A program made the translations under genes and the position numbers. The notes beneath the pieces were generated by a model. That model saw only the letters and a list, made by a program, of their open reading frames with translations. It was not told the origin of the DNA and searched no databases. This document shows positions 5,878-61,212 of a stretch of 64,000 nucleotides of DNA, one piece after another (the stretch's first letter is position 1; every line of letters begins with the position of its first letter). Source of the stretch: OCS155 cluster bacterium AG-349-E07 (GTDB lineage: Bacteria; Actinomycetota; Acidimicrobiia; Actinomarinales; Actinomarinaceae); contig QCCZ01000001.1 in the NCBI GenBank assembly GCA_003281085.1, forward strand, positions 99,452 through 163,451, written 5' to 3'.

Positions 5878-7005
5878 ATGACCCAAAGTGATATTCTTTT
5901 AAAACATCTCTCAACTGTATTTGACCCTGAATTAGGGGCGAATATCGTTGAATTAGGGATGGTTAAAGATGTTCAGCATGTAGATAAAACAGTAACAATC
6001 AAATTAGCTCTGACAATAGCTGACTGTCCAATGAGGAATCAAATAGAAACAGAAATCAATAGAAAACTAAAGCTTTTGGAAAATGTTGAAACAGTAGAGA
6101 TAGAAATCACTGCAATGGATCAAAAAGATCGAACTGCTGTTATGGAAAAAGCAAGAGAAAAAGCTAGGGAAAATGCTCAACCAACAAATGTTGATCCTAG
6201 AACTAGAGTGATTGCTATTGGAAGTGGAAAAGGTGGAGTAGGGAAATCAACTTTATCTGCAAATATTGCATTAGGTTTAGCAAAAAAAGGATTTCAAACT
6301 GGACTGTTAGATGCAGATATTTGGGGATTCTCAATACCAAGGCTGTTAGGAATAACTGGAAGAATTGAAGCAAATAGTGACAAAAAAATGATTCCTTATG
6401 AGATTGGAAATTTAAAAGTAATCTCAACTGGTCTCATAACAAGCGATGAAGATACTGCATTGATGTGGAGAGGCCTTATGTTAAGTAAAGCACTTGAACA
6501 ATTCTTAACTGACGTGGAATGGGGAGATTTAGATTATCTGATAATTGACCTACCGCCTGGTACAGGAGATATACAAATGGCTCTAAGTAGATTACTTCCA
6601 CAAGCTGAGCTAATTGTTGTTACAACTCCACAATTAATGGCACAAAAAGTTGCAACAAGAGTTGCCGATATGGCAAAGAGAAGTTTCATCCCTCTGTTGG
6701 GAGTAATTGAAAATATGTCATACTTTGAATCAGACACTGGAGAAAAATATAATATTTTTGGTGAGGGTGGAGGTGAAGCTTTGTCGGATAAATTTGGAAT
6801 ACCTCTCTTAGGAAAAGTTCCTATTAGTGAAAACACAAATAATGTAGCAGACAGTGGAACTCCATTAATTGATCAAAATAATTCTATTACGAAAGTAGAG
6901 ATAGAAAAATTAATAAACAATATTGCTATCCAACTTCCTCCAATTATTGATGAAACATGTACTGGAAGACTAGCAAAAGTTTTTGAGGAACTTTCAAATC
7001 AATGA
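5878..7005 (+). CDS. mrp: Mrp/ApbC Fe-S cluster carrier ATPase with N-terminal DUF59/MIP18 domain
   Basis: deviant Walker A GKGGVGKST, ParA-like fold, N-terminal DUF59-like segment; 4-nt ATGA overlap with selA. Confidence 0.85.
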   Translation: MTQSDILLKHLSTVFDPELGANIVELGMVKDVQHVDKTVTIKLALTIADCPMRNQIETEINRKLKLLENVETVEIEITAMDQKDRTAVMEKAREKARENAQPTNVDPRTRVIAIGSGKGGVGKSTLSANIALGLAKKGFQTGLLDADIWGFSIPRLLGITGRIEANSDKKMIPYEIGNLKVISTGLITSDEDTALMWRGLMLSKALEQFLTDVEWGDLDYLIIDLPPGTGDIQMALSRLLPQAELIVVTTPQLMAQKVATRVADMAKRSFIPLLGVIENMSYFESDTGEKYNIFGEGGGEALSDKFGIPLLGKVPISENTNNVADSGTPLIDQNNSITKVEIEKLINNIAIQLPPIIDETCTGRLAKVFEELSNQ

Positions 7006-8297
7006 ACCCTATTTCTGTTAATGAATTAACTGAATCAGTAAACTCTAATTTACCAAGAGATATAAAATCTACGATTGCAAAAAATATACTTTCAGAGGAA
7101 AAAGACTCTGATGTTGCAAAAAATATATTCTCTGAAATTATAAATGATTTAAGTTCAAAAACTCAAAGAGAAGTTGTAAATGCAACTGGTACTGTACTAC
7201 ATACAAACTTAGGTCGTTCTCCAAATAACATAAGCTTTCCTGGAAGTTATACAAATATTGAATACGATTTAAAGACTTTATCTAGAGGAAAAAGAAATGA
7301 ATACCTATCTGTACTTATGAATAACCTTATAGAATCTCAGGATATTGCTTTTGTAAACAACAATGCCTCTTCTCTTTTTCTCTCATTAAAAGCCATTTCT
7401 AAGTCACATAATATTCAAAATGTAATTATTTCTAGAGGTGAAATTATAGAAATTGGAGGCTCATATAGGCTTCCTGAAATAATCAATGAGACTGGTTTAG
7501 ACCTTGTAGAGATAGGCACAACAAACAAGACTAAATTGAGTGATTACAGAAAAGCATTAGAAAAGTACCCAAATTCTTTGATATTAAAAGTTCACAGGTC
7601 AAATTTCTCAATCAAGGGTTTTACAGAGGATGTTTCAATTGAAGAACTCGCTGAATTAAAAAATAAATTTGACGTTTTTCTTTTTCATGACTTGGGGAGT
7701 GGTTTAGTAATTGATAAGAAATTTTTAGAAATTAATAATATAAGTATCTTCAAAGATGAACCATTTGTGCAAGATTCACTTTCTGATGGTGCAAATTTAG
7801 TTATGTTTTCTGGAGACAAATTATTTGGGTCAGTTCAATCTGGAATGATTGCAGGAGATGACGACTTGGTTAATGAAATTAAAAACTACAGTTTGTTTAG
7901 AACTTATCGTTGCTCACCTATGACCTTATTTGAACTTCAAGAGACTGTACTTAAATATATAAATAAACAAGAAAAAGAGATACCTTTTTGGAATCTTATT
8001 ACACAACCTTATTCCTCCTTAGAAGATAGGTGTAAAAATTTGGCTAAATCTATTTCTTTTTCTACAAGCATAGAAAAAGGTGAAAGTGTAATTGGTGGAG
8101 GAACACTACCAGATGTCACTTTAGAATCACCTATCTTACTTATAAATAATGAAAAAACAGTAGATACTGTCAATCAGTTAATTAAAAACGATATCCCCAT
8201 AATTCCAAGAATTATTAAGGATCAAGTTTGTCTTGATTTAAGAAGTGTATTTCATAATCAAGATAACATAATTGTACAAGCATTAAATAATTCATGA
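7002..8297 (+). CDS. selA: L-seryl-tRNA(Sec) selenium transferase (selenocysteine synthase)
   Basis: blocks match E. coli SelA: ATGTVLHTNLGR, EYDL..RGKR, FVNNNA, SRGEIIEIGGSYRLPE, EIGTTNKT, FSGDKLFG..Q.G; overlaps selB start (ATGA). Confidence 0.85.
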   Translation: MNPISVNELTESVNSNLPRDIKSTIAKNILSEEKDSDVAKNIFSEIINDLSSKTQREVVNATGTVLHTNLGRSPNNISFPGSYTNIEYDLKTLSRGKRNEYLSVLMNNLIESQDIAFVNNNASSLFLSLKAISKSHNIQNVIISRGEIIEIGGSYRLPEIINETGLDLVEIGTTNKTKLSDYRKALEKYPNSLILKVHRSNFSIKGFTEDVSIEELAELKNKFDVFLFHDLGSGLVIDKKFLEINNISIFKDEPFVQDSLSDGANLVMFSGDKLFGSVQSGMIAGDDDLVNEIKNYSLFRTYRCSPMTLFELQETVLKYINKQEKEIPFWNLITQPYSSLEDRCKNLAKSISFSTSIEKGESVIGGGTLPDVTLESPILLINNEKTVDTVNQLIKNDIPIIPRIIKDQVCLDLRSVFHNQDNIIVQALNNS

Positions 8298-9967
8298 CCG
8301 TACTTGCAACTGCAGGCCATGTAGATCATGGAAAATCAACTTTTGTAAATTTTTTAACAGGTCAAGAAACTGACAGATTAAAAGAAGAAAAAATCCGCGG
8401 ATTAACTATAAATCTTGGATATACCTATTTTGAATTTAAAAATAGAAGAATATCTATTGTTGATGTCCCTGGTCATGTTGACTACTTTAAAAACACCATT
8501 GCAGGATTTGCAAATGTCGACGGTATAATTTTTTGTATCGACTCTGTTCAGGGGTGGTCTAGACAATCAGAGGAACATTTTCAAGCAATTAGAAATCTGC
8601 AGATTAATAATATTTTTTTTGTACTAACAAAAACAGATTTACTAGATTCTCCAGTTGATAAAAGTTATCTTGAAAAAAAATTAAAAGATGAAAAAGAAAT
8701 AAATTACACAATTGATGAATTTACTTATAAAACTAGCGATCTTAAACTATTTCAAGAAAAAATAGTAAACTTCTTTAAGTCTGACTCATTTGAAAACCCA
8801 AATTCATTATGGATTGATCGTAGTTTTACCAAGGATGGAATTGGTAAAGTTATAACTGGTACTGCTTCTATGGCTTTTGATTTAGAAAATATGTATCTTG
8901 CTAGGACAAACAAATTATTAGAAGTAAAAGAAATACGAAATAGTGAAGATAAAGTTAAAAATATTACATCCACATCAAGAATTGCTATCTCTCTCAAGAA
9001 GGGTACTCAAGACGATATTAGTCGAGGCGATTTGTTAACGAATGGAGTTGTTTCTTCAGGTAAATATATTTTTGCAATTTTAAATGGAAATGATAATGGG
9101 TTTAAGAACAAAGGAAGCAATAGATTGTTTGTTGGGACAATAAATCAAATTGTCAAAAGATTAGAGATTATAAATGCTTCAGAAAAAATTTTAATATATA
9201 TAGAGCTACCAAATAAATTACCAATATTAGAAAACCAGAAAATATTAATTCAAAACATGGTGTCTAATGATTTCATAGGTGGAAAAATTGCATTTGTTTC
9301 GAATAATAATAATTTAGTTAAAACATTTTTCAGACAAGTTCGAAAAACTGAATTTATTGATGTAGAAAAAGCATTTACTCTTCTTTCAGAAAATCTAAAG
9401 GAAAATTCCAAAGATTATATAGATATAAGCAACAAATACATATCAAAAGATTATTTGGAACGTATGACCCAAAAAATTAAGGAAAATATAAAAACTATAA
9501 ATTCGGTTGGTGTTAAAAATTATTTCCATGATCAATTTTTCATAGAGGATAATTATATTGATGAATTAATAGATAAAATCGATGGGTTAAATATTATAAA
9601 TGACCAGTTATTTGTTGATAAAGAAACAGTTGTTGATTTAGAGGTTTACCAGAACGTTATCAAGGAGATGTCGACCGATCTATCAGTTAAACGTGTTGAT
9701 ATAGATAAGTTCAATAAAGAATCTATAAAAGAACTCTTTATGAACGAGTATCTATTTAGAGTTAATAAAAATATAATTATTGGAAAAGAGCATAAATCAG
9801 AGCTTGTTGAAATTCTGGAAAAATTACCTGATATTTTTGATGTATCCGAATTTAAAGAAGCTTCTAATTTATCCAGAAAGTATGCGATACCTTATTTGGA
9901 GTTTTTAGATAAATGTTTATATACTTCAAAAATTAATAGTTCAGGAAAAAGAAAAAAATTAGTTTGA
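8294..9967 (+). CDS. selB: selenocysteine-specific translation elongation factor
   Basis: N-terminal ATAGHVDHGKST, DVPGH GTPase motifs matching SelB; long C-terminal extension ending in a winged-helix-like segment (RKYAIPYLEFLDK). Confidence 0.85.
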   Translation: MTVLATAGHVDHGKSTFVNFLTGQETDRLKEEKIRGLTINLGYTYFEFKNRRISIVDVPGHVDYFKNTIAGFANVDGIIFCIDSVQGWSRQSEEHFQAIRNLQINNIFFVLTKTDLLDSPVDKSYLEKKLKDEKEINYTIDEFTYKTSDLKLFQEKIVNFFKSDSFENPNSLWIDRSFTKDGIGKVITGTASMAFDLENMYLARTNKLLEVKEIRNSEDKVKNITSTSRIAISLKKGTQDDISRGDLLTNGVVSSGKYIFAILNGNDNGFKNKGSNRLFVGTINQIVKRLEIINASEKILIYIELPNKLPILENQKILIQNMVSNDFIGGKIAFVSNNNNLVKTFFRQVRKTEFIDVEKAFTLLSENLKENSKDYIDISNKYISKDYLERMTQKIKENIKTINSVGVKNYFHDQFFIEDNYIDELIDKIDGLNIINDQLFVDKETVVDLEVYQNVIKEMSTDLSVKRVDIDKFNKESIKELFMNEYLFRVNKNIIIGKEHKSELVEILEKLPDIFDVSEFKEASNLSRKYAIPYLEFLDKCLYTSKINSSGKRKKLV

Positions 9968-10219
9968 TACGTAGAGGTTCTCTCGTTTTCTTTCAACTTC
10001 ATTTAAGCCACCCCATACACCAAATGGTTCTGAAATTTCATTTGCTTCATCCAAACATTCAATCTTTACAGGACAACCACTACAGACTGCTTTGGCTTTG
10101 GCTTCCCTTTTTTCTCTATCTTCTTTCTTTTCAAATGTAGCTGGCGGAAAAAAAAGATTGCTACTATGTTGTCTGCAAAGTGCATCGTATTGCCATGTAG
10201 AAACTTTTATTTGAAGCAT
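9959..10219 (-). CDS. whiB: WhiB-family Fe-S transcriptional regulator
   Basis: four Cys (C..CSGCPVKIEC) plus GVWGG motif; 86 aa. Confidence 0.8.
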   Translation of the reverse strand: MLQIKVSTWQYDALCRQHSSNLFFPPATFEKKEDREKREAKAKAVCSGCPVKIECLDEANEISEPFGVWGGLNEVERKRENLYVSN

Positions 10220-13062: not shown

Positions 13063-13389
13063 TCAAATTACTTCAAAAGCTTTAAGTAGCTCATGTTTGT
13101 TTGGTGAATTATCAAAATCTTCTTTTGACTTATGAGCCTCGACATGCCAATCTGTTAATTCATTAATTAATAATTCTTCATCAACGCCGTTAACTTTTAT
13201 GGTTATTTCCCCATTTTGTGGTGCAGCCATGGTCATTATATTGATAATACTTTTTCCATTTGCAACCTTATCATCAAAAAAGATTTCAATGTCGCTTTCA
13301 AACTTGTTACATAATTCCACAAATTTAGCACCTGGGCGAGTATGCAAACCAGGATATATCAGTATTTTAAATTTTTTTTCTACTGCCAT
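13063..13389 (-). CDS. ptsH: phosphocarrier protein HPr
   Basis: GLHTRPGAKFV active-site His motif and KSIINIM segment typical of HPr. Confidence 0.8.
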   Translation of the reverse strand: MAVEKKFKILIYPGLHTRPGAKFVELCNKFESDIEIFFDDKVANGKSIINIMTMAAPQNGEITIKVNGVDEELLINELTDWHVEAHKSKEDFDNSPNKHELLKAFEVI

Positions 13390-13482
13390 TATTTATAATA
13401 TTAGTCATTTTTCGAAAAATTCTTAATCGCTATTTGTCAGAATATGGAGTTATGAACAATTAAGACCTTTTATAATTCACTT

Positions 13483-13866
13483 ATGAAAAATTTAATTTAC
13501 ATCCTTCTGGGAGCAGGTTTTTTAGCAATTATTTCCTCAAGTGCATCAGGGTTTTTAACTACTGAAACAAGTAATACTCTTGATAACCTATATGAAGAAA
13601 CTTTCTACATTGATCCAGAAAATATTGAAATCACAAATAACAACATCGTGATTACACTATCACAACAAAATAAAAATAACGCCGAGAAGAAAATTAATGA
13701 TTGTTTAAATTATTACAAAAAAGTTTATGAAAATTTAAATATAAATTGTGATTTAGTAGTAAAAGAAAGTGTTGCGCTTAATTCTTCTTGTGTGCACAAA
13801 TCAGGCGTTTTTGTTAAAGAAGAAAATCAGGAATATATAAAGATTACTACCTACAGCAACTGCTGA
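13483..13866 (+). CDS. small secreted Cys-containing hypothetical protein
   Basis: N-terminal signal-peptide-like segment; four Cys; no homolog recognised. Confidence 0.3.
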   Translation: MKNLIYILLGAGFLAIISSSASGFLTTETSNTLDNLYEETFYIDPENIEITNNNIVITLSQQNKNNAEKKINDCLNYYKKVYENLNINCDLVVKESVALNSSCVHKSGVFVKEENQEYIKITTYSNC

Positions 13867-14139
13867 TTAGTCGAATATTGAACCTAAAAGACTATCTTCT
13901 TCAGTTTCTATTTCAGCTATTGTGTCACCAACATTTACTATGTCGCCCTCTTCACAAGCTAAGTCTGTAATTTCTCCGGAGTAAGGTGATTCTAGATCCA
14001 TATCAACTTTGTCAGTGGAAATTTCACATATAGTGGCACCCTTCTCAATCTTTGAACCAACTTCAACTTTCCAACTTAAAATTTCAGCTTCGGTCATTTG
14101 ATCAGACATTGCCGGTAATTGAATTTTTTCTTTTGCCAT
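13867..14139 (-). CDS. free-standing lipoyl-attachment domain protein (no E2 catalytic domain)
   Basis: EILSWKVEVGSKIEKGATICEISTDKVDMDLESPYSGEI matches the E2 lipoyl-domain consensus with lipoyl-Lys in TDKV; ORF ends after about 90 aa. Confidence 0.65.
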   Translation of the reverse strand: MAKEKIQLPAMSDQMTEAEILSWKVEVGSKIEKGATICEISTDKVDMDLESPYSGEITDLACEEGDIVNVGDTIAEIETEEDSLLGSIFD

Positions 14140-14147
14140 ATATTTAT

Positions 14148-15131
14148 TTATAACATACTTTTGACTGCATTCGTAATGTCTTCAGCTTGAGGAATAACGT
14201 TTAATTCGAGGTGTTTTGCAGAAGGCATGGGTGAATGTAATCCTGAGACCAGCTTTGGAGCAACTTCAAGTTCATGAAATAACTCGCTTTCAACAATTTT
14301 TGAAATTACTGTCGTTCCCACAGAACTATTGGAAGGAGCTTCTTGACAAACTAAGAGTCTTTTTGTTTTTTTAAGTGAATTTTTAATAGTATCGTAATCT
14401 ATTGGTGAAACTGTCTGAAGGTCAATTAGTTCAATCGAGCAATTTTGTAATTCATCAGCGGCTATTGCTTCTTTTGCAACATTTACCATATTTGAATAGG
14501 CAACTATTGTTATATCGCTTCCTTCTTTAATGAGATTTGCTTTACCCAACATGCTTGATTCCTTGGGAATATCATTAAGTTCTACATTGTCTTTAATTTT
14601 ATATATTAATTTATGTTCCATGAAAATGATTGGGTTAGGATCTACAAAAGAATGGAGCAATAGATCATAGGCATTCTGAGGATTTGAAGGAGTAACTACT
14701 TTTAATCCTGGAACATGACAAAACCATGATTCAAGTGACTGGCTATGTTGTGCTGCCGCCCCTGTTCCAGCTCCACTAGCACCTCTGACAATTATTGGTA
14801 CGTTTACCGTTCCGCCATACATAAAATGAAGTTTTGCAGCTTGATTAACAATTGGATCCATAGCATTAACAATAAAATCACTAAACTGCATTTCGACAAT
14901 GGGTTTTCCGCCAGTCATTGATGCTCCAACAGCTAACCCTGCGATGACATCTTCAGCAATTGGTGTATCTTTAATTCTCTCCTCTCCAAATTGAGCTAGG
15001 AGTCCATCTGTAACTCCAAAGGCACCTCCGTAAATTCCAATATCTTCTCCAGCAATAAACGCTGTGGGGGTTTTTTCTAATATCAAACTAAGGGCTTTAT
15101 TTAATGCCTGTCCAGTTGTTAACTCAGGCAT
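14148..15131 (-). CDS. TPP-dependent 2-oxoacid/acetoin dehydrogenase E1 component beta subunit
   Basis: transketolase-like pyrimidine-binding and C-terminal domains; about 327 aa; overlaps the alpha subunit gene. Confidence 0.85.
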   Translation of the reverse strand: MPELTTGQALNKALSLILEKTPTAFIAGEDIGIYGGAFGVTDGLLAQFGEERIKDTPIAEDVIAGLAVGASMTGGKPIVEMQFSDFIVNAMDPIVNQAAKLHFMYGGTVNVPIIVRGASGAGTGAAAQHSQSLESWFCHVPGLKVVTPSNPQNAYDLLLHSFVDPNPIIFMEHKLIYKIKDNVELNDIPKESSMLGKANLIKEGSDITIVAYSNMVNVAKEAIAADELQNCSIELIDLQTVSPIDYDTIKNSLKKTKRLLVCQEAPSNSSVGTTVISKIVESELFHELEVAPKLVSGLHSPMPSAKHLELNVIPQAEDITNAVKSML

Positions 15132-16083
15132 ACGAATCCTCTTCTAAATTTGTTATTGGGCTGAGTGGGGAATCTAATGCCTGCTTAACCGATTTTCTGA
15201 TTAAATCCTTAATATCTGTATCAATGTCTTTAAGTTGATCTTCACTAATTCCAGACTCAATTAATTTTCCAATGTATCTTTTTATAGGGTCTTTTTCTTC
15301 TTTCCAATATTCAATTTCATCACTTGTTCTGTACAAGTTCCTATCAGATTTTGAGTGTCCCCTGTAGCGATATGTAACTGCTTCAATGAATTTTGGGCCC
15401 CCAGACGATAAAATTTTATTCTTAAAATTTAATACGTTTTCATAGACAGCCTCAACATCATTACCGTCAATTTGAATACTCTCTATTCCATAAGAATTTC
15501 CTCTCGATGCAATTGAGTCGCCTGCAACTGCTTTATCAGTTGCCATTGACATTCCATACTGATTATTCTCACATAAAAATAACACTGGAAGACTCCATAG
15601 CGATGCTAGGTTTAGAGCCTCATGGAATGAGCCTTCATTAACCGCTCCGTCTCCAAAAAAACAAAGTATAATATTGTCTTTTTTCTGCATCTGGAATGAT
15701 AAAGCTGCCCCAACAGAAATTGTTAAACTGCCAGCGACAATTCCATTGGCACCAAGATTACCATTTGATAAATCAGCAATATGCATTGACCCACCACGGC
15801 CTCTACAGTATCCATCTTCTCTACCAAGTAACTCTGCAAACATCTTATAAGGTTCGGCTCCTTTTGCAAGACAATGTCCATGTCCTCTGTGTGTTGAAGT
15901 AATCAAGTCATCTTTTTGAAGAGCTAAACATGCCCCAGCTGCTGTAGCTTCTTGACCGATAGATAAATGCATGGTCCCATGGAGCAAGCCTCTTGAAAAC
16001 ATTTCTTCTAGTGCTTCTTCAAACAACCTGATCAGCATCATCATGCGATGAAGTTCTAATTGAGTGGTTGTACTAAGTGTCAT
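15124..16083 (-). CDS. TPP-dependent 2-oxoacid/acetoin dehydrogenase E1 component alpha subunit
   Basis: TPP-binding motif GDGAVNEG...NN; about 319 aa, in the AcoA/PdhA size range. Confidence 0.85.
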   Translation of the reverse strand: MTLSTTTQLELHRMMMLIRLFEEALEEMFSRGLLHGTMHLSIGQEATAAGACLALQKDDLITSTHRGHGHCLAKGAEPYKMFAELLGREDGYCRGRGGSMHIADLSNGNLGANGIVAGSLTISVGAALSFQMQKKDNIILCFFGDGAVNEGSFHEALNLASLWSLPVLFLCENNQYGMSMATDKAVAGDSIASRGNSYGIESIQIDGNDVEAVYENVLNFKNKILSSGGPKFIEAVTYRYRGHSKSDRNLYRTSDEIEYWKEEKDPIKRYIGKLIESGISEDQLKDIDTDIKDLIRKSVKQALDSPLSPITNLEEDSYA

Positions 16084-16093
16084 TAAAGACTAT

Positions 16094-17347
16094 TTAACTA
16101 GCTTCTTGAAGTTTTCTTAAACTATTAATTAAATTTTCAGGAAGTTCAACTGAGTCTTTTGTAATTGGTTCACCTTTTTTTAGTTCTTTAATAACAGTTG
16201 CGCCTTCTAATAAGCCAAGTGGAATTAAATTGTCTGTATTTGCAACAGGATAAGTTACACCGTATGTGGCAAATCCCCCAATTCCATCAATCTTTTCACC
16301 TTTTTTTAGGTCTTTTTTTGCATGGCCAATAACTTCTGCAATCCATGACTTTGGTTGTAGCCCGGGTTCATTATTTATGATGGCCATCCCAATACTTCTA
16401 GGTGCTTCAATTGAAGCGAGGTGATAAGGCCTATAAAGAGTGTAATATGGACCTTCTCCCATAGATAAATACTCCATTTCTTCAATAACAGTTGGGTTGT
16501 CCGATTTCACAATAGAAAACACTCCTGGTGCTGGTCCAAATGCATAGTCAACTCTTCCAGATTCACTTAAAACACCCCCATCAGCTTTAGGGATAAGGAC
16601 TTTGTTTAATTCCTCTACTGAACTTACTGGTCCGTTCATGCCAATTTGATCTGGTGGTAAATTAATTGCATTTGCTAAAGCCGTCATTTCAATCATAGTT
16701 TTTGAACCATCTTCAAAACTTGCTAGCATTTTTGGATTCATATTCTTCTTAGTAGCTTTTTCTAAACAGGTATCAGGATTTGCAGTTTGGTCTAGTGGGT
16801 TGTTTTTTCCTTTTCCGACACACACTATCTCAAAACCTAAATCCACTGAGAAGTCATATAGCTCTTTACATGCAACTGGTTCATCACCATTCGCAACACT
16901 ATAAACTACATTATTTTTATTTGCTTTATTGGCTAAATACATCCCTATTGTGACATCTGTCTCTACATTCAACATGAGTATATGTTTTTGTGCCTCAATA
17001 CAGGCATCGGCAACCTCCGCACCAACCCATGGCACTCCAGTTGCTTCGAATACAATATCTATTGGTAGTTCTGCAAGAGCAGCTGCATTATCTACTACAC
17101 CACCTTGTCCGCTTTGGATAGACTTTGACGCCTCCTTGTTGTGTTTTACATACTCAACTCCAGCAAGATGTAATGCATTCTCAGCTCTTCCAATATCTAT
17201 ATCAGCACAAGCAACGAGGTTCATTCCTGGTATTTTCCCAATTTGTGCAGCAAGGCCGGAACCCATTTGGCCAGCACCAGCCAACCCAACTCTTACTGGT
17301 CTACCTAAATCTTTTTCACGAGCAATTAATAATTCTGTATAGTTCAA
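16094..17347 (-). CDS. NAD(P)-binding oxidoreductase with C-terminal SAF-like domain (COG4091 / homoserine-dehydrogenase-like family)
   Basis: N-terminal Rossmann GLAGAGQMG; C-terminal GEKIDGIGGFATYG SAF-like segment; about 417 aa. Confidence 0.5.
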   Translation of the reverse strand: MNYTELLIAREKDLGRPVRVGLAGAGQMGSGLAAQIGKIPGMNLVACADIDIGRAENALHLAGVEYVKHNKEASKSIQSGQGGVVDNAAALAELPIDIVFEATGVPWVGAEVADACIEAQKHILMLNVETDVTIGMYLANKANKNNVVYSVANGDEPVACKELYDFSVDLGFEIVCVGKGKNNPLDQTANPDTCLEKATKKNMNPKMLASFEDGSKTMIEMTALANAINLPPDQIGMNGPVSSVEELNKVLIPKADGGVLSESGRVDYAFGPAPGVFSIVKSDNPTVIEEMEYLSMGEGPYYTLYRPYHLASIEAPRSIGMAIINNEPGLQPKSWIAEVIGHAKKDLKKGEKIDGIGGFATYGVTYPVANTDNLIPLGLLEGATVIKELKKGEPITKDSVELPENLINSLRKLQEAS

Positions 17348-17703
17348 TTGTTTATCCTTAAATTATCCCCAATGCTTATATTAGGTTTATTATCAAATGT
17401 ACACCTGACATCTCCAAGCTGTGCTTCCTCAGTTGAAGAGTCAAGTTTTAAAACTAAATGACCTAAATTTTTAAAGTTTTCATTGGCTACAGGCCCTACA
17501 GAGACAACTTCTAAATTAGAATCTGAAAGACTTATTTTTGTTCCAACTACTATTTCACCAGAGATTTGCTCTAGTTTATGTATTACCGCAAAATCTTGAA
17601 GTTCCTCTGGTGCATTGTCACCAAAAAAAACTACAATTCCTTCATCTAAAAATAAATTAGCTTGTTCGCCTATTCTTACTATTTCTGAAGAATAAATTTG
17701 CAT
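17344..17703 (-). CDS. srlB: PTS glucitol/sorbitol-family EIIA component
   Basis: aligns by eye to E. coli SrlB (EIVRIGEQA vs TITRIGASA; LGHLVLKLDS vs LGHVTLRFDG); about 119 aa. Confidence 0.7.
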   Translation of the reverse strand: MQIYSSEIVRIGEQANLFLDEGIVVFFGDNAPEELQDFAVIHKLEQISGEIVVGTKISLSDSNLEVVSVGPVANENFKNLGHLVLKLDSSTEEAQLGDVRCTFDNKPNISIGDNLRINN

Positions 17704-18080
17704 TAAGCTTCAGTAACTTGATCCTCAGAAACTCCAGAAACAAAGTTCTCTTCTTTAATAAATTGAGCAAGTGGACCTGCTGGTGTAGTGTCATGAATAT
17801 CAATCGTTGGTACGCCCTTCATAGGATATACACCGATTCTCGCAGTTCCTCCACAATCAATTACTGCACAAGCCATGGCTTTAAAGCTTCCCTCTGGTGA
17901 TGATTTAAAGCCATCAAAGGCTTCCGCCCCAGTTAAATCAGCAATTTTTTGAGCAACTGGATGAATTCCTCCACCAGTAACGCAAACAATGTATTTTTTT
18001 TCATCAGTTGGTTGTATTTCTAAAGGGCCTCCCCAACCACTTGGCCCTGCTTCTACTTTTACTTTTTTATAATCTGCCAT
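17703..18080 (-). CDS. PTS glucitol/sorbitol-family EIIB domain protein (homolog of the SrlE N-terminal domain)
   Basis: GWGGPLEI, AVIDCGGT, PTIDIHDT, GPLAQFI blocks match the SrlE EIIB domain. Confidence 0.7.
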   Translation of the reverse strand: MADYKKVKVEAGPSGWGGPLEIQPTDEKKYIVCVTGGGIHPVAQKIADLTGAEAFDGFKSSPEGSFKAMACAVIDCGGTARIGVYPMKGVPTIDIHDTTPAGPLAQFIKEENFVSGVSEDQVTEA

Positions 18081-18100
18081 AGTTTCTCCTTTAAAAATAT

Positions 18101-18130
18101 GTAACGCTCTGATTTTAGTCAGAGCGTTAC
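18101..18130 (-). terminator. intra-operon perfect 12-bp-stem hairpin (GTAACGCTCTGA-TTTTAG-TCAGAGCGTTAC) followed on the transcript by AUAUUUUUAA, then the RBS of the EIIB gene; partial terminator or attenuator candidate
   Basis: palindrome read directly from the sequence, placed between the EIIC-domain and EIIB genes. Confidence 0.4.
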
Positions 18131-18157
18131 AAATTTAAAAATTGTTAAGTTATGTCT

Positions 18158-18682
18158 TTACAAACCTAGTGCAAATAAATAACCAACAACGACTGAGATT
18201 GGTCCAGTAATCATTCTACTTGTTAGAACTGCTGGAACACCAACCGTAACTGTCTCCGGTTCTGCTTCACCAAGAGCCAGACCAACTGGTACGAAATCAC
18301 AACCAACCTGTGGGTTAATTGCAAATAAAGCTGGAAGCGCCATTGAAACATCAATGTTTCCACGTCCAATTTCAGTACCAATTAGAACACCAACGATCTG
18401 AGCAATTACTGCACCAGGTCCTAGTAGTGGTGATAAAACAGGTATTGCGCATATGATACAAACTATCATTAATCCGCCTAAACTACTTGCAAAACCTTTT
18501 ATACCATTTGCAATAGCGTCACCAACACCGGTTTCTAAAATTAAACCAATGACAAAAGTAACGAATGCCATAAATGGAATTATTGTTTTTAAACATAGGT
18601 CAACAGCATCTCGACCTGCTTGGAACAATGTTCCAACCACGCCACCAACTGATCGACCAATTCTCTCTATTAAAGCTTGCAT
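18158..18682 (-). CDS. PTS glucitol/sorbitol-family EIIC domain protein (homolog of the SrlE C-terminal membrane domain)
   Basis: SPLLGPGAVIAQIVG, LPALFAINPQVGCDFVPVGLALGEAEPETV blocks resemble the SrlE membrane domain as I recall it; about 174 aa, several TM. Confidence 0.6.
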   Translation of the reverse strand: MQALIERIGRSVGGVVGTLFQAGRDAVDLCLKTIIPFMAFVTFVIGLILETGVGDAIANGIKGFASSLGGLMIVCIICAIPVLSPLLGPGAVIAQIVGVLIGTEIGRGNIDVSMALPALFAINPQVGCDFVPVGLALGEAEPETVTVGVPAVLTSRMITGPISVVVGYLFALGL

Positions 18683-19224
18683 TATTCAACACCTGCCCTT
18701 CTTGACGTCATAATGTTATAGATAATATCAGTTACGATACCTCTAATTAATATGACTACAAGGCCAGCAAGAAGATATCTAACTGCTAAAGCAGTTACCA
18801 TATCTGGTGCAACTATTTCTACACCTGCTGCAATCCCTAACCATACAAACAACTCTCCACCATTCGCATGTGGAAAAATTCCTGTAATGGGATGAACAAA
18901 GCTTACTGCTGAATCATAAAATGCTGGTTTATGTTTTTCAGGCAAAAAGGTACCGAATGTATAGCAAACTGGGTTAGTAAGCATAAATACAGCTACAAAC
19001 GGTAAAAGAGTATAACGAACAGGCATGTAAATTGCCCCTTCTTGAGAAGCCCATTTTGCAAAGCCCTCAACTCTTTCCTCACCGATGAACTTGACTAAAG
19101 CATTAACTGCAGTCAAGAACACAACCACAATTGGAATAATTCCAGTTGTGAAACCAACAAATACATCAGCAGCGGTTCTAAATACTTGGATAAAGGCTTC
19201 TGCGCCTGCTACCAAAGCATCCAT
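18682..19224 (-). CDS. srlA: PTS glucitol/sorbitol-family EIIC2 component
   Basis: close match to E. coli SrlA (FLPEKHKPAFY vs FMPEKYKPSYY; GIFPHANGGELFVWLGIA vs GLFPHINPGELFVYLGIA). Confidence 0.75.
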   Translation of the reverse strand: MDALVAGAEAFIQVFRTAADVFVGFTTGIIPIVVVFLTAVNALVKFIGEERVEGFAKWASQEGAIYMPVRYTLLPFVAVFMLTNPVCYTFGTFLPEKHKPAFYDSAVSFVHPITGIFPHANGGELFVWLGIAAGVEIVAPDMVTALAVRYLLAGLVVILIRGIVTDIIYNIMTSRRAGVE

Positions 19225-19242
19225 ATCTCCCCCTCCTTATAA

Positions 19243-19656
19243 TTAATTTGTCGAATTACTATCTGCTTTACTTTGAAGTTTTTTTATCAAAGTGTCAGCT
19301 GCCATTTTGGCAGCATCCCAGATAGGTTCTTTGTTTTCTGAGTTAGCAATTTCATTTAATGTTTTGCCATTAAATAACGAAACTTTTTTACTTTTTGCAA
19401 AAGTAGTTACCCCCTCCAGAGTAAGACCGTTAACAATGGTTGAATTTACATCAGCAGAGATTGCTAGATAGATTTTTTTTCTCCCCCATTTAGGTTGATT
19501 TACACCTATAGCGACTTCCAAGCCAGGTCCTTTAATGCTGTTTACTGCATCTAAGAAACCAGTAGCCTGTTTTTTAGCAAGATACATCTGTAAAACCCAC
19601 ATAAGTGCGAGTGTTACAAATATGACACCAAGTGCATATGGTGAACTAGATAACAA
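19243..19656 (-). CDS. gutM: GutM-like glucitol-operon activator
   Basis: single N-terminal TM segment plus GRKKIYLAISADVNSTIVNGLTLEGVTTFAKSKK resembling GutM. Confidence 0.55.
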   Translation of the reverse strand: MLSSSPYALGVIFVTLALMWVLQMYLAKKQATGFLDAVNSIKGPGLEVAIGVNQPKWGRKKIYLAISADVNSTIVNGLTLEGVTTFAKSKKVSLFNGKTLNEIANSENKEPIWDAAKMAADTLIKKLQSKADSNSTN

Positions 19657-19785
19657 CTTCCATCCTTCAACTTAAATAGTTAATTTAATTCTACATAAAT
19701 GATTCTTCGAATTTTGGTAAAAACCCGAAATCTTAAAAATAATGTAACCATTTTTGATTAAGAAAGGCCTGTTTTTAGGATTTTT

Positions 19786-20466
19786 TTAAATCATTTCCTC
19801 AAGTTTAAAGATATCTTCTATAAAAGTTACCTTCATGTTTCTTGGATCGCCAGGAATTACTACTGCCTCAAGCTCAGAATATTTTGATACGCATTCTGTT
19901 GTGTCTACTGCTTGCCATTTATCTAATTTTGCTAATTCATAGGATTTCCAAAGTTCTGAAGCTGGAAATATCTGTGGAGTTTGTATCTCTACAATTGTTT
20001 CTTGGATTTCTTCTTTGTTAAATTCCTGTTTTTTCATAAGATTATCTGAGTTATACCCAGGAGCTGAAGCTCCATATTTTTTTGCAACATCAATAAGCTC
20101 GTCTAACAAATAACTAGGTAACAGAGGTCTTGCGCCATCATGAATTAAAATTAGGTCTTCTTCATTTATATCTGGTCTTTCTTTTAAATAAAGAAGTCCT
20201 TGATATTCACTTTCATGTCTTGTGTTCCCACCAATTGTTACACCAGATAATTTTTTGGGATTAACTAGCTGAATTACATTATTAGTTTTTTCCCAGTCTT
20301 CATCCCTTACAACCAAAATTATTGAGTCAACTTTATCGGAATTATCTAGTGTCTCTAGTGGCCAGGAAAGTGCTGGCTTACCGCCAATTGGAAAGTAAAC
20401 TTTGTTTTCTTCATTATTAAACCTGTCGCTAGAACCACCAGCTAGAAGAATAGAATGTACTTTCAA
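19786..20466 (-). CDS. IspD/TarI-family polyol-phosphate cytidylyltransferase
   Basis: N-terminal ILLAGGSSDRF and GGKP nucleotide-binding motifs; about 226 aa; 4-nt overlap with ptsI. Confidence 0.65.
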   Translation of the reverse strand: MKVHSILLAGGSSDRFNNEENKVYFPIGGKPALSWPLETLDNSDKVDSIILVVRDEDWEKTNNVIQLVNPKKLSGVTIGGNTRHESEYQGLLYLKERPDINEEDLILIHDGARPLLPSYLLDELIDVAKKYGASAPGYNSDNLMKKQEFNKEEIQETIVEIQTPQIFPASELWKSYELAKLDKWQAVDTTECVSKYSELEAVVIPGDPRNMKVTFIEDIFKLEEMI

Positions 20467-22094
20467 TTTATAATTTCTTGAATAATCGTTCTAACCTCAT
20501 CAGCATTATTCTGTTGTAAAATCTGATCTTTTATCTTTTGTTTGTTAATTTTTGAGTGTGTATCTAAAGCATCAAATACAAAAGGAGCTGCTGAAGGTGC
20601 CATACTAAATATCTTTAAACCTAAAATGTATAAAACAAATGCTGAGACGGGATCTGATGACATTTCACCACATACTGACACCTCGGTATTATTTGCATTA
20701 CAACAATCAATTACATTAGAAATTGCCCTAAGTACCGCTGGATGAAGTGGGTCTTGGTACGGGCTTAAATTATTGTTGCCACGGTCTGCAGCCATAATGT
20801 ACTGCGTCAAATCGTTGGTGCCAATAGATATGAAATCAACAATTTCTGAAAACTTATCAGCAATCAATGCTGACGAGGGTGTCTCTACCATGATACCGAG
20901 TGGGGGAACTTCAACATTTAAGTTATTCGCTATTTTAGCAACAAACTCTTTTGCTTTTATAAAATCTTCTATAGTAGAAATCATTGGAAACATAATTTTT
21001 AATCTTCCTAATGATTTAGAATTTAAGATTGATTTTATTTGTGTGTCAAATAATTCAATATCATCCAACAATAATCTAATACCCCTTACGCCAAGAAAGG
21101 GGTTTTCTTCTGAAGGTAAATTCAGATAATCTACTTGTTTGTCACCTCCAATATCAAGAGTTCTATAGACAATTATTCCAGTGAATTTTTGAGTTATTTG
21201 TTCTAGAACCCTTGTTTGTTCCTCAAGTGTTGGAATGGTTGTGTTGTCTAAATATATAAACTCGGACCTAAATAAGCCAATGGAGTTTAAAAAGGGATGA
21301 TTAAATGAAATAATCTCCTCTAAAGAACCAATATTAACTCTGAATTCTACTCCTAATTCTTCGTACTTTTTTTTAGTAAAATTATCAATCAACTTTGTTA
21401 TATTGCCTTGTTTTTCTTTGAATTCAGATATCTGATTCTCACTTGGAGAAATAACAATATTCCCCGTATCACCGTCAATTGTCATTAACTCGCCATCTGC
21501 AATATTGTCGAGCAAACTTTTTACGCCGATCACGCAAGGGATACCCAAATTCTTTGCAACGATAACAGCATGCGAAGTAAACCCTCCTTCTTTTAATATA
21601 ATTCCATTAACTTTACTCAAATCCATTGATGATGTATCTGCAGGTGTTAAGTCTTCAGCGATTAAAATAGTGTTTTCGTTTAAAGTAATTTCTCTTTCAA
21701 TGTTTTGCATATTGAAAACAAGGTGTTTTCCTACAGAGAGTATGTCTTCAGCTCGTTGCTTAAAATAAACATCTTCCATTGATTCAAATACACTTGCAGT
21801 GGACGTAAAAATACTATAAACCTCTTCGACTGAAGAATCTGAATTTTGATTTAGTTGAGCCACTATTTCAGGATCTTGAAGGATCAATATGTATGCATCT
21901 AAAATGTCAGCTTCATCATTTCTTTCTTTTGAGCGGAAATCAAGGATTTGAGAACTAAATTTTTCAATCAGTTGTTTGCTAGCCTCAACATGAGTGAGGA
22001 TTGCTTCTTTATCAAAATCTATCTCATTTTCATAAACAAATGATGAACCTATTGCAACACCTAATGAAGCACCTAGTCCCTTAACACTTGTCAT
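20463..22094 (-). CDS. ptsI: phosphoenolpyruvate--protein phosphotransferase (PTS enzyme I)
   Basis: phospho-His region GGFTSHAVIVAKNLGIPCVIG; GTNDLTQY; CGEM motifs. Confidence 0.85.
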   Translation of the reverse strand: MTSVKGLGASLGVAIGSSFVYENEIDFDKEAILTHVEASKQLIEKFSSQILDFRSKERNDEADILDAYILILQDPEIVAQLNQNSDSSVEEVYSIFTSTASVFESMEDVYFKQRAEDILSVGKHLVFNMQNIEREITLNENTILIAEDLTPADTSSMDLSKVNGIILKEGGFTSHAVIVAKNLGIPCVIGVKSLLDNIADGELMTIDGDTGNIVISPSENQISEFKEKQGNITKLIDNFTKKKYEELGVEFRVNIGSLEEIISFNHPFLNSIGLFRSEFIYLDNTTIPTLEEQTRVLEQITQKFTGIIVYRTLDIGGDKQVDYLNLPSEENPFLGVRGIRLLLDDIELFDTQIKSILNSKSLGRLKIMFPMISTIEDFIKAKEFVAKIANNLNVEVPPLGIMVETPSSALIADKFSEIVDFISIGTNDLTQYIMAADRGNNNLSPYQDPLHPAVLRAISNVIDCCNANNTEVSVCGEMSSDPVSAFVLYILGLKIFSMAPSAAPFVFDALDTHSKINKQKIKDQILQQNNADEVRTIIQEIIN

Positions 22095-22169: not shown

Positions 22170-22628
22170 ATGCAAATTTTAGTGCTTGAGATTAATACTT
22201 CTATTACTTTGTTTAATTTAAGTGACAAAAATGGGTCACTTAAATTCGAGAATTTAGGAGAAATACAAGACTCAAATCAATTAAATTTTAGTGACGAAAC
22301 AAAGTGCTTGATTATAGATTCAACAGCACCTGAAGAGCCAAAGCTTTCAATGTTACTTACAAATTTTATTAATTCGGAATACAAGATAACTACCAATAAT
22401 GTAACTAATGCTATTAAGAAAATAAACACAGATGGTCAGATAATTGAGCACCTTGATCGTGAAGAATACACAAGGTTGTCAACACCTTCAAAAGCAACTA
22501 TTGGAATGGTCAAGTCATACTTTAATAAATACGCATCATGGAGCTTTAATAAATTTATAGCTTTGCATAGTTCTTACTATGACCAATACCAGACTCTCGA
22601 GCCTGAAGTCTATTTAGAATCTAAATAG
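22170..22628 (+). CDS. hypothetical protein
   Basis: ORF only. Confidence 0.25.
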   Translation: MQILVLEINTSITLFNLSDKNGSLKFENLGEIQDSNQLNFSDETKCLIIDSTAPEEPKLSMLLTNFINSEYKITTNNVTNAIKKINTDGQIIEHLDREEYTRLSTPSKATIGMVKSYFNKYASWSFNKFIALHSSYYDQYQTLEPEVYLESK

Positions 22629-56739: not shown

Positions 56740-57375
56740 TTATGTTGGAGTATCTCCCTCATTAAAATCAATAAACAACTTACCTGCATACACAGGTCCC
56801 ATATAAGCTACAGTGCTTCCATCAAACATTTCAGACTCTGATTCACTATCTAGTGCTGCCTGTAATTTTTCAACAGCTACATTCATTTCTTCCTCAGAAT
56901 CCCAGAAGTTCCAACTAATAGCGCTACTTCCGTCAAAAACTGCACCTGTTACTTGAAGGCCTTCAGACTCTTCATAAATTGGTTCTACTTTTTCTTTGAG
57001 GAAGCTCAATACTGCGTCTGTGTCTTTTGCAACACCAACAACCAACCTTAAATAGCTTGGTCTTGTACTGTCCTTAGCCATAGTCTTATATACCTTGCCA
57101 TAAACTGCATCTCCTTGATAAATTACAGGAGGTGCCGACATCATTCCAGCTGCTTCTGATAATACGCCTTGTATTTTTTCTTCTACAGCATCTACAGCTT
57201 CCTTACTTTCATAAGCAGCCAAATTAACGCCAGAAGTCTCCCCTGTAATAGCAGCCATCATCGTTAGAAGTCCAGGTGTGCCATCAAACTCTGGCATAAC
57301 TTTTTCTTTAACAAAAGATATGGCTTCGTCTTTTTTTCCATCCTGAAGAGATGGAATCGTTATTCTAAAGTACAT
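56740..57375 (-). CDS. paralog 4 of a tandem double ABM/Dabb-like domain protein family
   Basis: MYFR... N-terminus; internal two-fold repeat; paralogous to 57391, 58739 and 59416. Confidence 0.45.
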   Translation of the reverse strand: MYFRITIPSLQDGKKDEAISFVKEKVMPEFDGTPGLLTMMAAITGETSGVNLAAYESKEAVDAVEEKIQGVLSEAAGMMSAPPVIYQGDAVYGKVYKTMAKDSTRPSYLRLVVGVAKDTDAVLSFLKEKVEPIYEESEGLQVTGAVFDGSSAISWNFWDSEEEMNVAVEKLQAALDSESESEMFDGSTVAYMGPVYAGKLFIDFNEGDTPT

Positions 57376-57390
57376 AATTTCCTTTCTTTT

Positions 57391-58035: not shown

Positions 58036-58099
58036 TTGTTTTATTTTTTACTCTACGGAATAATTTCCTATTTAAATGTTTCCATTACTTACCTCAGAA

Positions 58100-58726: not shown

Positions 58727-58738
58727 ATATTTCCTTTC

Positions 58739-59389: not shown

Positions 59390-59415
59390 TTTCCTCCTTT
59401 AACAAATCAATAGTA

Positions 59416-60057: not shown

Positions 60058-60060
60058 AAA

Positions 60061-60594: not shown

Positions 60595-60633
60595 TTTATT
60601 TTCTTTCTCCTTTTTCTAATATTCTCTTTCTTT

Positions 60634-61191: not shown

Positions 61192-61212
61192 CGATTAAAC
61201 TCCTGTTCTTTT

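Follow-up and report, generated by a model that had tools for sequence, protein, structure and literature searches.

A Gut-type phosphotransferase operon with a DXR-II oxidoreductase in Actinomarinales as a candidate system for the scavenging of 2-C-methyl-D-erythritol

The window analyzed in this work is a 64,000-nucleotide stretch of DNA from OCS155 cluster bacterium AG-349-E07 (Actinomarinales; contig QCCZ01000001.1, positions 99,452 to 163,451), and its minus strand carries, at 13867-22094, a block of eleven genes in which a glucitol-family (Gut-type) phosphotransferase system (PTS) is joined to an oxidoreductase, a thiamine pyrophosphate (TPP)-dependent E1 pair, a lipoyl protein and an IspD-like cytidylyltransferase. 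Judging from sequence comparisons, this operon probably serves the scavenging of 2-C-methyl-D-erythritol (ME), either for catabolism or for isoprenoid supply. The initial annotation had proposed a Gut PTS for a polyol other than glucitol, the phosphate of which would be cleaved via TPP and lipoate or activated with CMP, and this reading gained support, as the Pfam assignments hold, srlD is missing and the gene set is conserved across phyla. The identity of the oxidoreductase as DXR-II (also called DRL) sharpens it and points to MEP, the 4-phosphate of ME, as the polyol phosphate and to DXP, or 1-deoxy-D-xylulose 5-phosphate, as the substrate of E1. A listing of open reading frames (ORFs), combined with Pfam and NCBIfam scans, recovered all eleven genes on the minus strand at the coordinates previously assigned to them, transcribed in the order ptsI, IspD-like gene, gutM, srlA, C-terminal part of srlE, N-terminal part of srlE, srlB, DRL gene, E1 alpha, E1 beta and lipoyl gene. 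They are listed below together with an intercistronic hairpin and the gene for HPr.

20463-22094, minus strand: ptsI, PTS Enzyme I (Pfam PEP-utilizers_C, PEP-utilizers and PEP-utilisers_N), first in the block and overlapping the IspD-like gene by 4 nt.
19786-20466, minus strand: IspD-like cytidylyltransferase of the "module type" (Pfam IspD, 112.5 bits, cut-off 27), predicted to convert MEP and CTP into 4-diphosphocytidyl-2-C-methyl-D-erythritol (CDP-ME).
19243-19656, minus strand: gutM, GutM-type operon activator (Pfam GutM, 57.7 bits), preceded by a 129-nt gap.
18682-19224, minus strand: PTS EIIC1 of the SrlA type (Pfam EII-GUT, 223 bits; NCBIfam SrlA equivalog, 206 bits, cut-off 150).
18158-18682, minus strand: PTS EIIC2, the C-terminal membrane half of SrlE as a gene of its own (Pfam EIIBC-GUT_C, 151 bits).
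18100-18131, minus strand: intercistronic hairpin separating the genes for IIC2 and IIB, perfect over 13 bp and ending in a T-rich tail, from the scan for terminator-like sites.
17703-18080, minus strand: PTS EIIB, the N-terminal half of SrlE (Pfam EIIBC-GUT_N, 177 bits), with DCGGT as the presumed phospho-cysteine motif.
17344-17703, minus strand: PTS EIIA of the SrlB type (Pfam PTSIIA_gutA, 100 bits), overlapping the DRL gene by 4 nt.
16094-17347, minus strand: DXR-II/DRL-family oxidoreductase (Pfam PF21135 DRL_cat, 211 bits, plus SAF), proposed to convert MEP and NAD+ into DXP.
15124-16083, minus strand: TPP-dependent E1 alpha of a module-specific clade (Pfam E1_dh, 271 bits; GDG...NN motif).
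14148-15131, minus strand: E1 beta (Pfam Transket_pyr and Transketolase_C), of the module clade like E1 alpha.
13867-14139, minus strand: stand-alone lipoyl domain of 90 amino acids (Pfam Biotin_lipoyl, 76 bits) with the lipoyl-lysine motif TDKVDM.
13063-13389, minus strand: HPr, the PTS phosphocarrier (Pfam PTS-HPr, 73.6 bits), with the His15 motif GLHTRP.

The oxidoreductase had been described as a COG4091-type enzyme; a SAF-domain oxidoreductase is indeed present, and its assignment could be refined to DXR-II/DRL on the basis of the DRL_cat domain and of the Brucella abortus DRL structures 3UPL and 3UPY, which matched the window protein with E = 1e-102 over residues 9-416. Against 3UPY, the alignment scored 347 bits with 42% identity over the full length. 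DRL, or DXR-II, is an alternative enzyme interconverting DXP and MEP; true DXR-II proteins have been separated by named diagnostic residues from two groups of inactive paralogues (DLO1 and DLO2), among which some proteins of Actinobacteria and spirochetes were classed, and the conversion of DXP to MEP was demonstrated by complementation for eleven members of the DXR-II clade (PMC3847144). Taking the residue roles second-hand from that study, we found that the diagnostic positions Gly121, Lys191, Lys193, Thr229, His250, Arg320 and Val351 read G, K, K, T, N, R and I in the window protein, five of seven being identical and V351I being a conservative change. The fosmidomycin anchors Lys191, Lys193 and Thr229 are thus kept, as are the dimer residues Glu174, Phe178, Arg320 and Tyr322. 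DRL homologues encoded on annotated plasmids fell into identity tiers of 40-45%, 30-36% and 24-28%, the two lower ones occurring in unrelated contexts (CDP-sugar biosynthesis, or genes for tripartite ATP-independent periplasmic (TRAP) transporters and PfkB with a quinol monooxygenase), and their DLO-like members lack Lys193 and Thr229. A tree rooted with DLO-like outgroups placed the window DRL inside the clade holding the proteins of Brucella, Listeria and S. fredii NGR234, all of which are listed as DXR-II (PMC3847144). The identity tiers, the diagnostic residues, the rooted tree and the differing gene contexts of the DLOs led us to reject the idea that the window protein is an inactive DLO paralogue, and by sequence it belongs to DXR-II. 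As regards the DLO-like proteins themselves, the 30-36% identical genes on Deinococcus and Gemmobacter plasmids (L098 and L100) lie between rfbF, a short-chain dehydrogenase/reductase (SDR) gene and rfbC in CDP-sugar/O-antigen clusters, which hints at a nucleotide-sugar function for this paralogue group.

A genome-context comparison then showed that the genes are not together by chance, a possibility the initial annotation had allowed for: the block is syntenic in four relatives (L001-L004; 83-88% DRL identity), and the set recurs in dozens of distant genomes. A DRL-alignment scan of species-representative genomes yielded 80 loci with 45-57% identity, onto which we mapped the window proteins and the recurring neighbor families. 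A Gut-type PTS lies beside the DRL gene in 58 of these loci, and srlB directly upstream of it in 39; GutM was found in 53, E1 alpha/beta in 46, a full E2 in 43-46, an IspD-like gene in 41 and a SorC-type sugar-binding regulator in 59. The hosts span Actinomycetota (including Nocardia, Mycolicibacterium, Streptomyces, Amycolatopsis, Cryobacterium, Klenkia, Planktophila and Rubrobacter), Chloroflexota, Spirochaetota and Bacillota. The order and orientation of the gene blocks vary by lineage while the gene set persists, which argues for functional coupling.

Loci with other uptake systems, or without E1, were found as well:

Agrobacterium tumefaciens pAtCFBP7129b: one operon with an ATP-binding cassette (ABC) transporter, PfkB kinase, DRL, E1 alpha, E1 beta, E2, LpdA and LipA, with a divergent SorC-type regulator.
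S. meliloti pRM41A: arrangement as in pAtCFBP7129b.
S. fredii NGR234: PfkB and ABC transporter in reverse orientation, then SorC, DRL, E1 alpha, E1 beta, E2 and Lpd in forward orientation.
Priestia: major facilitator superfamily (MFS) transporter, FGGY kinase, DRL and E1/E2/E3.
Listeria monocytogenes: SorC, DRL and GutM in forward orientation, and Gut PTS, without E1.
Ligilactobacillus: DRL and Gut PTS, followed by fsa and tkt.

Published DXR-II members, namely those of S. fredii NGR234 and Listeria, thus sit in module loci. Three unrelated routes of import and phosphorylation (PTS; ABC transporter plus PfkB; MFS transporter plus FGGY kinase) are joined to DRL, usually with a complete lipoate/TPP complex. 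What changes between loci is the way in which the substrate is taken up and phosphorylated, whereas DRL-E1-E2-E3(-LipA) is retained; this implies a catabolic pathway in which a phosphorylated substrate meets DRL before E1. Two further variants deserve mention in their own right. On the Ligilactobacillus salivarius megaplasmid (L088, 9001-16575), fructose-6-phosphate aldolase (fsa) and transketolase replace E1/E2 after the DRL gene and Gut PTS, and they may be a non-oxidative alternative for splitting the DRL product. A Chloroflexota subclade of DXR-II (L045, 5036-13825; L062, L068, L073 and L076) is without PTS, kinase and E1 and shows the order SorC, ribose-type ABC transporter, DRL, Zn-dependent alcohol dehydrogenase and L-fucose-isomerase-like protein; its DRL keeps the full Brucella residue signature, and the subclade may represent a different pathway with the same enzyme.

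The E1 subunits of the module form a group of their own. E1 alpha scored 350 bits against TIGR03182, the equivalog model of pyruvate dehydrogenase (PDH) E1 alpha, which is under the cut-off of 393.85, and E1 beta barely passed the NCBIfam subfamily model (323.3, cut-off 321). The window E1 alpha shares 51-57% identity with its counterparts from DRL-carrying plasmids and from C. difficile, compared with at most 43-48% for annotated AcoA/PdhA proteins (AcoA about 40-43%). In neighbor-joining trees, built without bootstrap support, the DRL-linked E1s from five phyla formed one clade for both subunits, which excluded the sigma54-regulated aco genes of Enterococcus, Thermus acoA, a pdhA-like gene of Ralstonia and a Tamaricihabitans paralogue. 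The clade-specific changes are mostly to small residues, plus Tyr92. Its sole studied member is the C. difficile "predicted acetoin dehydrogenase" acoRABCL (L090, equivalent to CD0035-CD0039), which has a SorC-type regulator. According to a preprint, acoRABCL is not induced by acetoin, does not permit growth on acetoin, and the acetoin consumption of an acoA mutant is unchanged; these phenotypes fit a substrate other than acetoin. C. difficile also has DXR-II, encoded elsewhere in its genome.

In every module examined outside Actinomarinales, the orthologue of the 90-amino-acid protein is a full E2 with lipoyl, E3-binding and catalytic domains. The Actinomarinales gene stops right after the lipoyl domain, the short form being 77% identical in L001-L003, and the 90-amino-acid protein is therefore an E2 truncated after its lipoyl domain. 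This lineage having lost the E2 core, the acetyl group could be passed on to CoA, and the lipoyl domain re-oxidized, by an E2 core and an E3 from genes elsewhere. The sharing of lipoyl domains has a precedent in Actinobacteria, where OdhA/Kgd borrows those of pyruvate dehydrogenase E2. Free lipoyl carriers paired with E1 may be commoner than assumed: non-module E1 alpha/beta pairs on a Rubrobacter plasmid (L091, 2721-5042) and a Thermus plasmid (L092, 3995-6185) are followed by a stand-alone protein of about 80 amino acids, annotated as lipoyl-type in Rubrobacter, and then by sugar or TRAP transporters.

The cytidylyltransferase connects the block with the MEP pathway. It scored 138.5 bits against TIGR00453 (ispD), under the equivalog cut-off of 181.3, and 77.8 bits against the model of ribitol-5-phosphate cytidylyltransferase, which is below its IspD score. 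Read from the sequence, the motifs GGSSDRF...NKVY, HDGARP and MKVT are intact; they correspond to the P-loop Arg and Lys, the HDxARP and the C-terminal KVT that serve catalysis and substrate binding in E. coli IspD. The IspD-like genes of the loci fall into three groups: (i) canonical IspD or IspDF fusions adjoining carD or ispF, (ii) the module type, which follows DRL, is usually followed in turn by a 105-amino-acid Zn-ribbon protein and comprises the window and Chloroflexota copies, and (iii) a very divergent type adjoining carD. The entire module lies within the carD-ispD-ispF-cysS locus in many Actinobacteria. The IspD-like gene is missing from the rhizobial and Bacillota versions, so that IspD is an accessory branch and not the core. 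We also considered that the window IspD is a housekeeping copy beside ispF, and this was rejected for the window, where carD, ispF and cysS are absent, but may hold genome-wide. The Zn-ribbon protein, which has two CxxC pairs, directly follows module-type IspD in L008, L029, L048, L072 and about 30 other loci; the same Actinobacteria and Chloroflexota loci often hold a second, highly divergent IspD-like gene adjoining carD.

As to the transporter, the profile searches upheld the family assignment of all putative Gut components: the domains of the glucitol-family PTS (TC 4.A.4), PF03608, PF07663, PF03612 and PF03829, are all present and score far above the Pfam cut-offs, EIIC2 aligning to positions 158-329 of the SrlE profile. 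The NCBIfam scores of EIIA are far below the glucitol equivalog cut-offs. Both relay partners are present, with the GLHTRP motif of HPr and the DCGGT motif of IIB intact; ptsI holds the same position in L001-L004, and the HPr gene, which we assigned to the same PTS, lies downstream of the block beyond a convergent plus-strand ORF. The absence of srlD noted in the initial annotation was borne out, as no SDR-type sorbitol-6-phosphate dehydrogenase (SrlD) occurs within 13063-22094 and DRL is the sole oxidoreductase there. Where srlE is split, the C-part precedes the N-part in 35 of the 80 loci and follows it in 23; both orders being common, the split is a natural variant and not decay. The hairpin between the two halves is the sole copy in the window. 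In L001-L004 its stem is kept, a single A->G change leaving a G-U pair in place, whereas its loop and flanking sequence differ; this pattern suggests that the RNA structure is under selection; the hairpin might decouple the expression of the membrane and soluble parts of the PTS. A second transporter is found in relatives at 83% DRL identity (L001, 14007-16970), where a mannitol-type PTS (EIIC, IIB and IIA) and mannitol-1-phosphate dehydrogenase sit between the 127-amino-acid ORF next to the block and the HPr gene. These four genes are missing at the corresponding place in the window (13390-13482), and the mannitol-type PTS genes are thus a presence/absence polymorphism within the lineage. A genome survey of Actinomarinales annotates the order with "mannitol and sorbitol" PTS systems; its supplements list neither dxr nor dxs nor ispD.

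The cofactor signature bears on the direction in which DRL may work. At the end of the Rossmann strand beta2, Brucella DRL has Ser-Ala-Arg-Arg, the usual NADPH signature, whereas all 90 other homologues examined, including the Listeria and rhizobial proteins, have Asp, the usual NAD+ signature, at the same position, a rule of assignment that is heuristic. The window DRL reads Ala-Asp-Ile-Asp there, and the Paracoccus versutus protein, added later, has Glu. In the rooted tree, Brucella DRL is nested among E1-linked rhizobial proteins. In Brucella, DRL serves as the biosynthetic DXR, DXR-II replacing DXR-I there and in some other lineages (PMC3847144). On the simplest reading, the near-universal Asp together with the nested position of the Brucella protein indicates that the DRL family was ancestrally catabolic and NAD-linked, the Brucella type having been recruited later.

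Taken together, these observations suggest the following route. Phosphate would pass from Enzyme I and HPr via IIA to IIB and the Gut-family permease, so that ME would be imported and released as MEP. DRL would then run backwards and oxidize MEP to DXP; its activity is known for the family from the literature, and the direction and NAD as cofactor are the predicted parts. DXP (CH3-CO-CHOH-R) is an acetoin-like methyl alpha-hydroxyketone, and its cleavage by the acetoin-dehydrogenase-like E1 alpha/beta, which would amount to the DXS reaction run oxidatively in reverse, would free glyceraldehyde 3-phosphate (GAP) and reductively acetylate the lipoyl protein. An E2 core and E3 encoded elsewhere would transfer the acetyl group to CoA and re-oxidize the lipoamide, and the IspD-like enzyme would divert part of the MEP to CDP-ME for isoprenoid synthesis. 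With phosphoenolpyruvate (PEP) as the phosphate donor, the net reaction would be ME + PEP + CoA + 2 NAD(P)+ -> pyruvate + GAP + acetyl-CoA + 2 NAD(P)H. ME is proposed as the substrate because it jointly accounts for DXR-II, the Gut-type permease, the acetoin-dehydrogenase-like complex and the tie to ispD/ispF. Free ME and its precursor 2-C-methyl-D-erythritol 2,4-cyclodiphosphate accumulate in, and are exported from, stressed plants and bacteria. According to its title, as cited in PMC3994034 and PMC4082188, a study by Testa, Cornish and Poulter (2004) found ME to be transported by the sorbitol PTS of Salmonella. Functional DXR-II has been described in Finegoldia and Anaerococcus, both otherwise devoid of MEP genes, in the mevalonate-only Chloroflexus, and beside DXR-I in many genomes (PMC3847144); the ME model explains this scattered and redundant occurrence.

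A broader proposition, for which we claim somewhat less than even confidence, is that DXR-II/DRL was ancestrally a catabolic NAD+-linked MEP dehydrogenase, rather than an alternative enzyme of isoprenoid synthesis, which, together with a hitherto unrecognized DXP dehydrogenase complex (a sister of acetoin dehydrogenase converting DXP into acetyl-CoA and GAP), constitutes a widespread ME catabolism, with the Brucella type as a secondary recruitment and free ME as a real currency of dissolved organic carbon. Its range would take in bacteria of soils and plants, some Bacillota (gut and food-associated species among them) and one of the most abundant photoheterotrophs of the ocean.

Several observations speak against ME scavenging. 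The window DRL carries H250N, and some actinobacterial DRL relatives have Ala at position 121 or 229. No clade-specific Arg, Lys or His able to bind the phosphate of DXP was found in the module E1, so that its specificity for DXP is a prediction from the logic of the pathway. Neither an E2 core nor E3 was found in the 64-kb window, and no E1/E2 in the examined flanks of the Listeria, spirochete and Ligilactobacillus loci, where cleavage by E1/E2 is thus either not universal or encoded elsewhere. EIIC1 passes the SrlA equivalog cut-off of NCBI, and its sequence is compatible with glucitol. The model does not account for the dedicated IspD paralogue, the Zn-ribbon protein and the second divergent IspD-like gene of large genomes, and canonical dxr, dxs or a second ispD is possibly missing from the organism. 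Finally, the equilibrium of DXR lies on the side of MEP, and only a pull from the E1 step could drive the reverse direction.

Among the alternatives, the one that survives best, although we regard it as unlikely, keeps the enzymatic logic and changes the substrate, which could be another small polyol or a deoxy-ketose, for example 1-deoxy-D-xylulose (DX), an isomeric 2-methyltetrol, a branched polyol of the apiitol type or a compound like 4,5-dihydroxy-2,3-pentanedione (DPD)/autoinducer-2 (AI-2), the phosphate again yielding acyl-CoA and triose phosphate. The core of phosphorylation, DRL and E1/E2/E3 fixes the chemistry just loosely, SorC-type regulators bind diverse sugar phosphates, and residues 229 and 250 in the substrate region vary in some relatives; the Chloroflexota subclade, moreover, pairs DRL with a ribose-type ABC transporter, Zn-dependent alcohol dehydrogenase and fucose-isomerase-like protein and has no kinase. 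However, the phosph(on)ate and substrate anchors are conserved, the link to ispD/ispF is specific to MEP, and DX as the substrate would make DRL needless between kinase and E1, yet the DRL gene directly precedes that of E1 alpha in rhizobial operons. The clade also takes in proteins that belong to the published DXR-II clade, for eleven members of which the formation of MEP from DXP was demonstrated (PMC3847144).

Considerably less credible is a biosynthetic housekeeping role, in which DRL would be the sole DXR and IspD the sole IspD of the cell, placed beside an ordinary PTS by genome compaction, with E1 perhaps acting as a DXS-like carboligase. The genome is indeed highly compact and the block adjoins the core region rpsF-ssb-rpsR-rplI-dnaB; the loss of the E2 core and the possible lack of canonical dxr or dxs would also suit this role. 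DXR-II stands in for DXR-I in Brucella and some other lineages (PMC3847144), and PDH E1 in mutant form is reported to be able to supply E. coli with DXP (PMC3424233). Such a role does not account for the occurrence of the set with full E2, E3, LipA, kinases, transporters and SorC on plasmids of rhizobia and in large genomes. Canonical dxs and dxr are present in Streptomyces, Nocardia and rhizobia. A carboligase, furthermore, would have no use for a lipoyl carrier, yet this protein is 77% identical among the relatives with its lysine motif intact, and the NAD-type signature speaks against a reductive biosynthetic role. The biosynthetic and catabolic roles are compatible, and DRL could serve both.

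Weakest of all, and highly improbable in our view, is an ordinary glucitol operon in which a DRL-family dehydrogenase replaces SrlD (sorbitol-6-phosphate to fructose-6-phosphate) beside an unrelated pyruvate or acetoin dehydrogenase: although NCBIfam calls SrlA, and both SrlE halves jointly, glucitol PTS components, the Actinomarinales genome paper lists sorbitol uptake, DRL sits where srlD would be, and Listeria and Ligilactobacillus show PTS and DRL only, it leaves unexplained the E1/E2/E3 genes that follow DRL in one operon even where the uptake system is ABC or MFS plus kinase, the distinct module E1 clade, the ispD/ispF association, the retained DXR-II substrate anchors and the low score of IIA.

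The layout of the block agrees with what had been described, namely tightly packed genes on one strand with many overlaps of 1-8 nt; such overlaps occur at the ptsI/ispD, srlA/srlEc, srlEn/srlB, srlB/DRL and E1a/E1b junctions, and three further junctions have gaps of 8-18 nt. The gap of about 130 nt between ispD and gutM is real (129 nt, the largest) but is not the sole sizeable one, as a second of 77 nt separates the two srlE halves. In a promoter scan, shuffled sequence gave more sites than the real one, and the enrichment of terminator-like sites was slight, so that no operon boundaries could be drawn from them. Scanning 12.5-23 kb, the ispD-gutM gap included, against Rfam at E <= 1 revealed no riboswitch or leader. 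The window has a GC content of 33% and contains a WhiB gene. An exact-sequence look-up with its DRL gave no match; its close relatives were recovered from metagenomes of TARA Oceans and of an estuary and from one marine single-cell or metagenome-assembled genome. The WhiB gene and these relatives agree with a streamlined marine actinobacterium as the host, despite the low GC content.

Other features of the neighborhood may be recorded here. The block is flanked on the opposite strand by ORFs of 127 amino acids (13483-13866, plus strand) and 152 amino acids (22170-22628, plus strand), neither with a Pfam match, whose position and length are kept in L001-L004. The 127-amino-acid protein has a signal-peptide-like N-terminus; we considered it as a remnant of the E2 core and rejected this, having found no similarity. 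Selenocysteine machinery (SelA and SelB) is kept in this streamlined genome and adjoins the WhiB gene (7002-9967, plus strand, and 9959-10219, minus strand). At 56740-61842 (minus strand), next to a luciferase-like monooxygenase, lies a tandem array of eight ORFs without Pfam match, seven of which form two paralogous families: four ORFs of about 211-216 amino acids that start with MYxR and share 24-35% identity, and three hydrophobic ones of 177-209 amino acids with 26-30% identity. The eighth (58100-58726, 208 amino acids), also hydrophobic, is related to neither.

The initial annotation knew of no described pathway of this composition, and our full-text literature searches, outside which most subscription journals lay, likewise found none: no paper returned by them tied DXR-II to a PTS, to an operon with kinase and transporter or to a dehydrogenase complex, and none dealt with the catabolism of methylerythritol or deoxyxylulose. 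All parts come from known families and the operon is in kind one of polyol utilization; what is new is the proposed chemistry and the reinterpretation of DXR-II. If correct, it would constitute a new catabolic pathway and make a sugar phosphate a new class of substrate for lipoate/TPP dehydrogenase complexes. It would also resolve the puzzle, more than a decade old, of why DXR-II has a scattered distribution, duplicates DXR-I, is carried on plasmids and occurs in organisms that lack the MEP pathway. Annotations such as "sorbitol PTS", "homoserine dehydrogenase-like / SAF domain protein" and "acetoin or pyruvate dehydrogenase" would be corrected in hundreds of genomes, including those of Listeria, C. 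difficile, rhizobia and Streptomyces. The design of fosmidomycin-type drugs would be affected too, since DXR-II may not be a biosynthetic target in many pathogens. For Ca. Actinomarinales, it would suggest that nearly 1% of a genome of roughly 1 Mb is devoted to an isoprenoid-pathway by-product released by phototrophs.

Among known systems, the srlAEBD-gutM-srlR-gutQ operon of E. coli and Salmonella (TC 4.A.4) shares with the window the four transporter domain families and GutM, and the Salmonella system is, by the title cited above, a transporter of ME. It differs in that the window has DXR-II in place of SrlD and a split srlE with swapped halves, adds ptsI, HPr, E1 alpha/beta, the lipoyl protein and IspD, and has relatives that use a SorC-type regulator instead of SrlR. 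With B. abortus DXR-II (3UPL and 3UPY), the window enzyme has in common the family, fold, 42% identity, anchoring and dimer residues and clade, whereas the Brucella enzyme is biosynthetic with the NADPH-type S-A-R-R and the window enzyme carries the NAD-type Asp, lies in a transport and cleavage operon and is proposed to work in the opposite direction. Acetoin dehydrogenase (AcoA/AcoB/AcoC/AcoL) is likewise a heteromeric TPP-dependent E1 alpha/beta with a lipoyl acceptor, about 40-43% identical, and the chemistry proposed here, from a methyl alpha-hydroxyketone to acetyl-lipoamide and an aldehyde, is of the same kind. In contrast, the module clade stands apart from the sigma54-regulated aco operons and is associated with SorC-type sugar-phosphate regulators, its studied member does not behave like an acetoin dehydrogenase, and the E2 of the window is a bare lipoyl domain. 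The lsr pathway of AI-2 (LsrK, LsrG, LsrF and LsrR) resembles the proposed route in that a five-carbon methyl-ketone sugar is phosphorylated and split to acetyl-CoA and triose phosphate and that a SorC-family regulator binds the phosphorylated intermediate; unlike it, the window operon is not known to have LsrG/LsrF homologues, and the proposed cleavage would be TPP/lipoate-dependent rather than thiolytic and would follow a DXR-type rearrangement. The TarI/TarJ pathway of CDP-ribitol, finally, also pairs an IspD-family cytidylyltransferase with an NAD(P)-dependent enzyme whose substrate is a phosphate of the pentitol type, but the window cytidylyltransferase scores higher as IspD than as a ribitol-5-phosphate enzyme (138.5 versus 77.8 bits), its partner is DXR-II and not a TarJ-type reductase, and its context is uptake and catabolism instead of wall-polymer synthesis.

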